Below are positions 39,803 to 40,675 of a DNA stretch of 64,000 nt, piece by piece. The stretch lies in the NCBI RefSeq assembly GCF_030013205.1, contig NZ_CP122648.1; one strand, given 5' to 3'. Each line of letters opens with the position of its first letter. Position 1 is the first letter of the stretch. The notes beneath the pieces were generated by a model, which was given only the letters and a program-made list of their open reading frames with translations, was not told where the DNA came from and searched no databases. Source of the stretch: Escherichia coli (GTDB lineage: Bacteria > Pseudomonadota > Gammaproteobacteria > Enterobacterales > Enterobacteriaceae). The position numbers were made by a program, and so were the translations under genes.

Positions 39803-40675
39803 TTACCAGCGACCGGACGCGCCGCCACCGCCAGAAGAACCGCCCCCGCCGCTAAATCCGCCGCCACTTGAGCCGCCACCGGAACCGCTGTTGTCTGAAT
39901 GATAACTTCTACCAGATGCTTTTTTCTGAAGTACACATAAACAGGTAAAGACCATAATGGTGGTGAAAGTAAAAAAGAAGAAAAATACAGCAATGGAAAA
40001 AGTTTTATCGGAGAACAGGAATAAATCTAAAAGATAGATTGCTGAAATACAGACACTGCTTTTACATGCGCGACAAAAATTACTGCCTTCATGAAAAAAC
40101 CAGAAAGGGAAGAACATCACTGCAAATACCCAAAAAATAGCAAAGTAATAATGATCACTGGAAGACGCTGATTCAATTTCTGAAGGATTAGCCGGATATT
40201 GGTGTTGTGAAGTGAGTTGGTTATTCAAAGCGATTATAGCTAACTCTAATCCCTTAGCTAATTATTGTTGTTTAAATGCGGGTATCATGTTGCTACGGAT
40301 GATATCTCCAGCCAGAGCATCGGTTACCTTTTCTTCCAGCCCATAACCTACCTGGATGCGGACAGTACGATCCGACCAGGCAACAATGATCAGTATCCCA
40401 TCATTGCGTTTGGCATCTCCTAAACGCCAATTGTTAAAAACCCTTGTAGCATATTGTTCAATTGTCTCGTCTTTGGTTGTGGGAATAATTAATACAGCAA
40501 TTTGTACTTGGGTATTATTGAAAATAGATTCTAACTTCCGCGTCAGTTCTTTCTTTTCTTGTGAGTTTAAGCTACTCGTAAGATCCGTAACTTGTTGCTG
40601 TAATTGTGGGACAATAGTTGGTTGGGCTGCAACAAAGGAACACACGAATGTGAATATTAGTATGAAATAGCGCAT
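39803..40675 (-). pseudogene. ygcG: TPM-domain protein YgcG split by an in-frame TAA at 40262-40264 (candidate nonsense allele)
   Basis: ORFs 40262..40720 (signal peptide plus TPM domain) and 39803..40228 (TM segments plus Gly/Ser-rich tail) share one frame separated only by TAA; fragment lengths sum (137+1+11+141) to the 290 aa I recall for intact K-12 YgcG. Confidence 0.5.

Follow-up and report, generated by a model that had tools for sequence, protein, structure and literature searches.

A stretch of 64,000 nucleotides of Escherichia coli DNA (hereafter the window) contains, between eno and queE, a ygcG reading frame that is interrupted by a single in-frame TAA. The question raised by this locus is whether it holds two genes, one gene read with an error, or one gene that has been lost. 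The initial annotation favored a nonsense allele or a sequencing error over two genes. We consider it very probable that ygcG in the window is a recent, lineage-confined nonsense pseudogene (K138*) that originated once and has been inherited vertically. We observed directly that the codon is mutated, what its ancestral state was, how the allele is distributed and that the stop is located inside the TPM domain.

The ygcG reading frame and its internal stop

The ygcG pseudogene occupies 39803-40675 on the minus strand as 291 codons in one frame, and its length and position are those of intact K-12-lineage ygcG. Direct translation of this strand gives 137 sense codons, TAA, 152 sense codons and a terminal TAA, in agreement with the initial proposal that the two halves share one frame and are split by the single TAA at 40262-40264. 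This premature stop (minus strand) is codon 138, where intact alleles have AAA (Lys), as determined from the alignment, the per-site differences and the allele counts. The variant base is 40264, where the plus strand of the window has A and that of intact alleles has T. The base directly after the internal stop is T, resulting in the tetranucleotide TAAT. Because the 290-codon frame is interrupted at codon 138, the ygcG of the window ranks as a pseudogene within the family rather than as one of its functional members.

The N-terminal fragment (40265-40675, minus strand, 137 codons) runs MRYF…AFKQQ and is composed of a hydrophobic leader, which is signal-peptide-like as judged from its sequence, followed by positions 1-108 of the 125 positions of the TPM profile. 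The remnant downstream of the stop (39803-40261, minus strand, 152 codons and the terminal stop) is not expected to be translated. It encodes the last TPM helix and, after it, three helices predicted to lie in the membrane and a tail rich in Gly and Ser whose last residues are GGGGASGRW. A mechanical list of open reading frames splits the gene into 40262-40720 and 39803-40228, with the second frame starting at a TTG (40226-40228). It had been stated that 12 codons lie between these pieces, but only 11 are found between the TAA and the TTG and the twelfth, read as L, is the TTG start itself.

Ancestral state of codon 138

A 1,011-bp query across the locus was compared with 5,426 complete E. coli genomes. 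It has matches in 5,072 of them, and in each case these are located between eno and queE. In a K-12-lineage genome, ygcG is intact (873 nt, 290 aa, WP_001268460.1) and is followed by the 46-codon yqcG. The lengths of the two fragments in the window had been said to sum to that of intact K-12 YgcG, and these values bear this out. Intact ygcG is also carried by strains 98218 (99.0% identity) and TUM14771 (99.4%). The gene order eno–ygcG–yqcG–queE is common to the records of the window, the K-12 lineage, 98218, TUM14771 and ETEC4079, and the window gene has both the position and orientation of an orthologue, between eno and yqcG/queE, and nucleotide identity over its full length. Across the 1,011 bp around the gene, the K-12 lineage is 95.5% identical to the window, and the nearest intact alleles are 99.0-99.4% identical.

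The ygcG sequences align over 873 columns without gaps, and the K-12 lineage, 98218 and TUM14771 all have AAA where the window has TAA. The relatives thus have a sense codon at codon 138 that differs by one base, as is expected of a nonsense pseudogene, and the alignment to K-12 that had been proposed as a check identifies the codon at 40262-40264 as AAA (Lys138). The difference between AAA in the intact alleles and TAA in the window indicates that Lys138 was changed to an ochre stop through a single transversion. In the coding strand, A was replaced by T, which corresponds to T to A at plus-strand position 40264. K-12 carrying the same stop and two annotated genes would have argued for two separate genes, but ygcG is intact in the K-12 lineage. 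Since the rest of the frame is undamaged, the loss of function must be recent.

Five other differences separate the window from the nearest intact allele, all of them at 40090-40195. Relaxed constraint downstream of the stop was considered as a reading of these differences and was rejected as uninformative, as the linker is polymorphic in all alleles; the divergence of the gene (0.6%) is also lower than that of the 12-kb flanks (1.8%).

Distribution of the stop allele

The distribution of the allele was determined using a 41-mer with the variant base at its center (window 40244-40284), for which megablast seeding requires that base to be present. The 41-mer with the stop is found in exactly 21 of the 5,426 complete E. 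coli genomes, and all 21 are from swine or wild boar. Among the same genomes, a 99-mer containing the stop is exact in 19 and its AAA version is exact in about 1,703. The two extra carriers (UK pig faeces) have one more SNP, at 40289. Four carrier records that were opened are from Denmark, France (wild boar), the UK and Belgium. The content of CRISPR spacers downstream of queE varies among carriers of the stop, and the four opened records differ from each other in both country and spacers. The different countries and the different spacers indicate that the carriers are distinct isolates with independent assemblies, and the stop is therefore reproducible.

The carriers are closely related. Over the 12-kb flanks, the window is 100% identical to ETEC4079 (GCF_030013185.1) and 98.8-99.4% identical to the 17 other carriers listed, whereas identity does not exceed 98.2% for the best-ranked non-carriers. 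These values indicate that the carriers form a single clonal lineage. The suggestion to look for the stop in related strains is thereby answered; it is present in one pig and wild boar lineage. Two of the strains, W13-16 and P15-25, have been described as edema-disease strains of O139:H1 ST1 with a hybrid STEC/ETEC character (PMC8798679). The stop-bearing lineage also contains several porcine isolates designated ETEC, from Belgium and elsewhere. The mutation would have arisen once, in an ancestor of this pig-associated lineage with its O139:H1 ST1 edema-disease members, and would then have been inherited vertically. In metagenomes, a 40-mer of the stop allele was found on 0 contigs and the sense 40-mer used as a control on 32, mostly human-gut; the absence of the stop allele fits a rare allele and is not informative for pigs. 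The A at plus-strand position 40264 can serve as a single-base marker, since the 21 pig and wild boar isolates of one lineage are its sole carriers among the 5,426 complete genomes.

The stop allele has already been recorded as a pseudogene in RefSeq and is an ordinary finding in this sense. In CFSAN018748, HCP5S3_I2, W13-16 and ETEC4079, the NCBI annotation pipeline PGAP names the gene ygcG, describes its product as a TPM domain-containing protein and flags it as pseudo because of an internal stop. In W13-16, ygcG and its small upstream neighbor are the sole pseudogenes in the 49 kb around them. A literature search on the ETEC strain names found nothing, and the literature found on ygcG consists of sigma-S binding lists only. 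For annotation, 39803-40675 should be treated as one ygcG pseudogene, whose internal stop is K138*, instead of two open reading frames.

Position of the stop within the TPM domain

The Pfam model PF04536 (TPM) matches intact YgcG at residues 29-152, covering profile positions 1-124 of 125 with a score of 128.5 bits. The 137-residue product of the window is matched at residues 29-136, covering positions 1-108 with 117.8 bits, and so passes the gathering cut-off of 22.1 bits. The distal 152 residues alone have no Pfam or NCBIfam match. The search of NCBIfam gave just a far sub-threshold match to Psb32 (38 bits compared to a cut-off of 160) and no match to a YgcG- or YqcG-specific model. The canonical TPM fold consists of four strands flanked by four helices (bioRxiv 10.1101/2024.10.28.620569), and the translated fragment falls short of this complete domain (positions 1-125). 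Solved homologues align across the missing segment; 5ANP (BA41) aligns to YgcG residues 20-186, 7TBR to 18-150 and 2KW7 to 27-155. Directly past the stop, L139, G142 and L143 are invariant in a comparison with the O157:H7 TPM proteins from the same locus (32-45% identity).

An AlphaFold2 model of intact YgcG based on a six-sequence alignment has a mean pLDDT of 47, too low for searching by fold, so that only its pattern of secondary structure was used, as weak support. In this low-confidence pattern the elements are β29-31, α38-55, β58-63, α72-80, β94-99, β105-109, α119-135 and α139-156, followed by three long helices at 174-254, the first of which is the first predicted membrane helix (174-193). 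The protein is cut off by the stop before its fourth TPM helix and so loses this helix together with the membrane helices and the Gly/Ser tail. The initial annotation described the stop as parting a TPM half from a membrane half. The distal half does have the predicted membrane helices and the Gly/Ser tail, but the stop is located inside the TPM domain (29-152), and because the truncated product ends at profile position 108 there is no clean split between two domains.

The expected product

Translation would stop at codon 138 and produce at most an exported fragment of 137 residues. It would end before the fourth TPM helix, have neither the membrane helices nor the Gly/Ser tail and probably be unstable and non-functional. 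The distal 152 codons would stay untranslated. Between the TAA and the TTG at 40226-40228 there is no ATG and no well-spaced Shine-Dalgarno sequence, with the nearest purine-rich motifs ending ~15 and ~24 nt upstream. Farther on, a GTG and an ATG at residues 186-187 are the next in-frame starts, and they fall inside the first predicted membrane helix. The poor context of the TTG and the location of these later starts make independent translation of the distal part unlikely. In E. coli, UAAU is the most efficient termination signal. As the stop in ygcG is a TAA followed by T (UAAU), read-through should be negligible, and the 64-kb window was searched for an ochre suppressor and contains no tRNA genes. 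We infer that YgcG function has been lost, with neither read-through nor re-initiation. A stable truncated periplasmic fragment of YgcG may exist and have residual activity.

Alternative explanations

A sequencing or assembly error, in which the true codon is AAA, needs only a single-base change, and the site lies within the A5 run of the intact allele (CAACAAAAATTAG). The change is, however, a substitution, unlike the homopolymer-length errors that are typical for long-read platforms. It also recurs, as the same base, in 21 complete genomes that differ in laboratory, country and CRISPR spacers, and it tracks one clonal lineage. The occurrence of the same stop in 21 independently assembled genomes excludes an error for practical purposes, and we assign almost no probability to it; what stands of the initial alternatives is the nonsense allele of one gene. 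Restoration of full-length YgcG by read-through or suppression of the TAA is just as negligible and is only a formal possibility raised by the frame being intact past the stop. TAA is neither the selenocysteine nor the pyrrolysine codon, it is followed by T, and the window is without tRNA genes. A recoded stop would be kept across diverged lineages, but this one is confined to one clone (21/5,426) and is absent from the metagenome contigs. A functional split would yield a soluble periplasmic TPM protein and a separately translated membrane protein, for example from the TTG at 40228. The two fragments are otherwise undamaged, the TTG is 12 codons past the stop, and several separate TPM genes are found at this locus in other E. 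coli. Against this, a split gene would be broken at a domain boundary and its second part would have its own ribosome-binding site and start, whereas this break falls inside the TPM domain before the conserved last helix, the TTG is without a well-spaced Shine-Dalgarno sequence, and later starts fall inside a predicted membrane helix. The distal part alone also has no family match, and the limitation to 21 genomes of one clone is unexpected for a two-gene arrangement under selection. We therefore consider a functional split to be very improbable.

The remaining alternative accepts the loss of ygcG and concerns its cause, with positive selection for the loss in a pig-adapted edema-disease clone taking the place of drift or hitch-hiking. 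In its favor, a pathogenic lineage that is host-restricted has the allele fixed in all of its 21 genomes. The locus, an envelope-stress region bound by sigma-S, has also been repeatedly disrupted or replaced in other E. coli. The repeated disruption is, however, explained equally well by dispensability, and a single origin in a clonal lineage provides no signal of selection, so that adaptive loss is considered unlikely. There is likewise a slim chance that the loss of YgcG, as a sigma-S-associated envelope protein, is pathoadaptive for the pig and wild boar edema-disease clone or that the truncated exported TPM fragment has gained a new role.

The eno–queE interval and neighboring genes

The flanking genes eno (38445-39743) and queE (40969-41640) are both on the plus strand, and the interval between them (39750-40968) is a variable island of TPM genes in E. 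coli. A 99-mer from the center of ygcG has matches in 4,275 of the 5,426 genomes, leaving about 1,150 without a match to the center of K-12-type ygcG. All of the eno–queE TPM variants share a C-terminal motif ending in (A/S)x(R)W. The IS1 and IS3 disruptions and the different TPM genes found in other strains (see below) indicate that the ygcG locus is dispensable, and the stop in ygcG is a further example of this dispensable and often remodelled TPM locus.

A GC-rich hairpin (tGCCAGCCttcgGGCTGGCa, 39768-39787), read directly from the sequence, separates the convergent genes eno and ygcG. It has a perfect 7-bp GC-rich stem and a TTCG loop, is flanked by runs of A and T, and is likely a bidirectional intrinsic terminator. 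A likely terminator at this position would make ygcG the last gene of its transcript, and a polar effect of the stop on other genes is therefore not expected. A scan for consensus promoters and terminators missed this hairpin, and the promoter-like sites that it reported were not above chance.

The yqcG-like small gene (40689-40830, minus strand) is 13 nt upstream of ygcG and is annotated in RefSeq as frameshifted. The window has an A5 run at about 40787-40791 where K-12 has A4. The same additional A is present in TUM14771, 98218 and KMi029, strains described as having intact ygcG, which makes it older than the stop in ygcG and more widespread. A 39-aa open reading frame (40689-40808) retains the hydrophobic C-terminal part of YqcG in frame, which suggests that yqcG of the window may be an allelic form with a different N-terminus and not a dead gene. 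The divergent intergenic region between queE and yqcG-ygcG (40831-40968 in the window) is bound in K-12 by sigma-S RNA polymerase (PMC4447067, PMC5493296). The matches to consensus promoters in this region of the window lack significance.

Several other features of the window were recorded. Downstream of queE is a short type I-E CRISPR array (41974-42252) with five copies of GAGTTCCCCGCGCCAGCGGGGATAAACCG at a spacing of 61 nt, and two degenerate repeats (42750-42845) are found about 500 bp beyond the array. The cas3 gene (59295-61994, plus strand) is an intact open reading frame of 899 codons. In the closely related O139:H1 strain W13-16, ~600 bp are missing (window 60872-61468) and cas3 has 694 codons (L008 44418-46502); at the junction, the two alignment blocks overlap by ~20 bp, which points to a short repeat. 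On the other side of eno, relA (33371-35605) is followed by mazG (35701-36492) with just 95 nt between them (window 35605-35701). The mazEF toxin-antitoxin pair, which in K-12 is located between relA and mazG, is absent from this position in the lineage of the window.

Comparison with known systems

K-12 YgcG (b2778; WP_001268460.1) is the orthologue of the window gene, with the same position between eno and yqcG/queE and the same length of 873 nt. In architecture the two agree as well, with a leader first, then the TPM domain and the membrane helices, and finally a Gly/Ser tail that ends in GGGGASGRW. They differ at codon 138, which is AAA (Lys) in K-12 and TAA in the window, and ~40 further substitutions are ordinary lineage divergence. 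The RefSeq pseudogenes QDW55_RS05275 (ETEC4079), KZW92_RS11040 (O139:H1 W13-16) and C7A99_RS07965 (CFSAN018748) have the identical sequence and are the same feature.

Other strains differ from the window in how the locus was altered. KMi029 has an IS1 inside ygcG and MS20677 has a mosaic of an IS3 element and truncated TPM genes between eno and queE. Both inactivations are independent of that in the window and involved insertion sequences, in contrast to the point nonsense mutation of the window. In O157:H7 NE122, three different TPM-domain genes are located between eno and queE instead of ygcG. The closest solved homologue is BA41 of Bizionia argentinensis (5ANP), which aligns to residues 20-186 of YgcG with E = 9e-24. 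BA41 resembles YgcG in that its TPM domain precedes a hydrophobic segment and its C-terminus is rich in Gly, ending in GGGASGGW. BA41 is from a distant organism and, unlike BA41, the product of ygcG in the window would be without the fourth helix.
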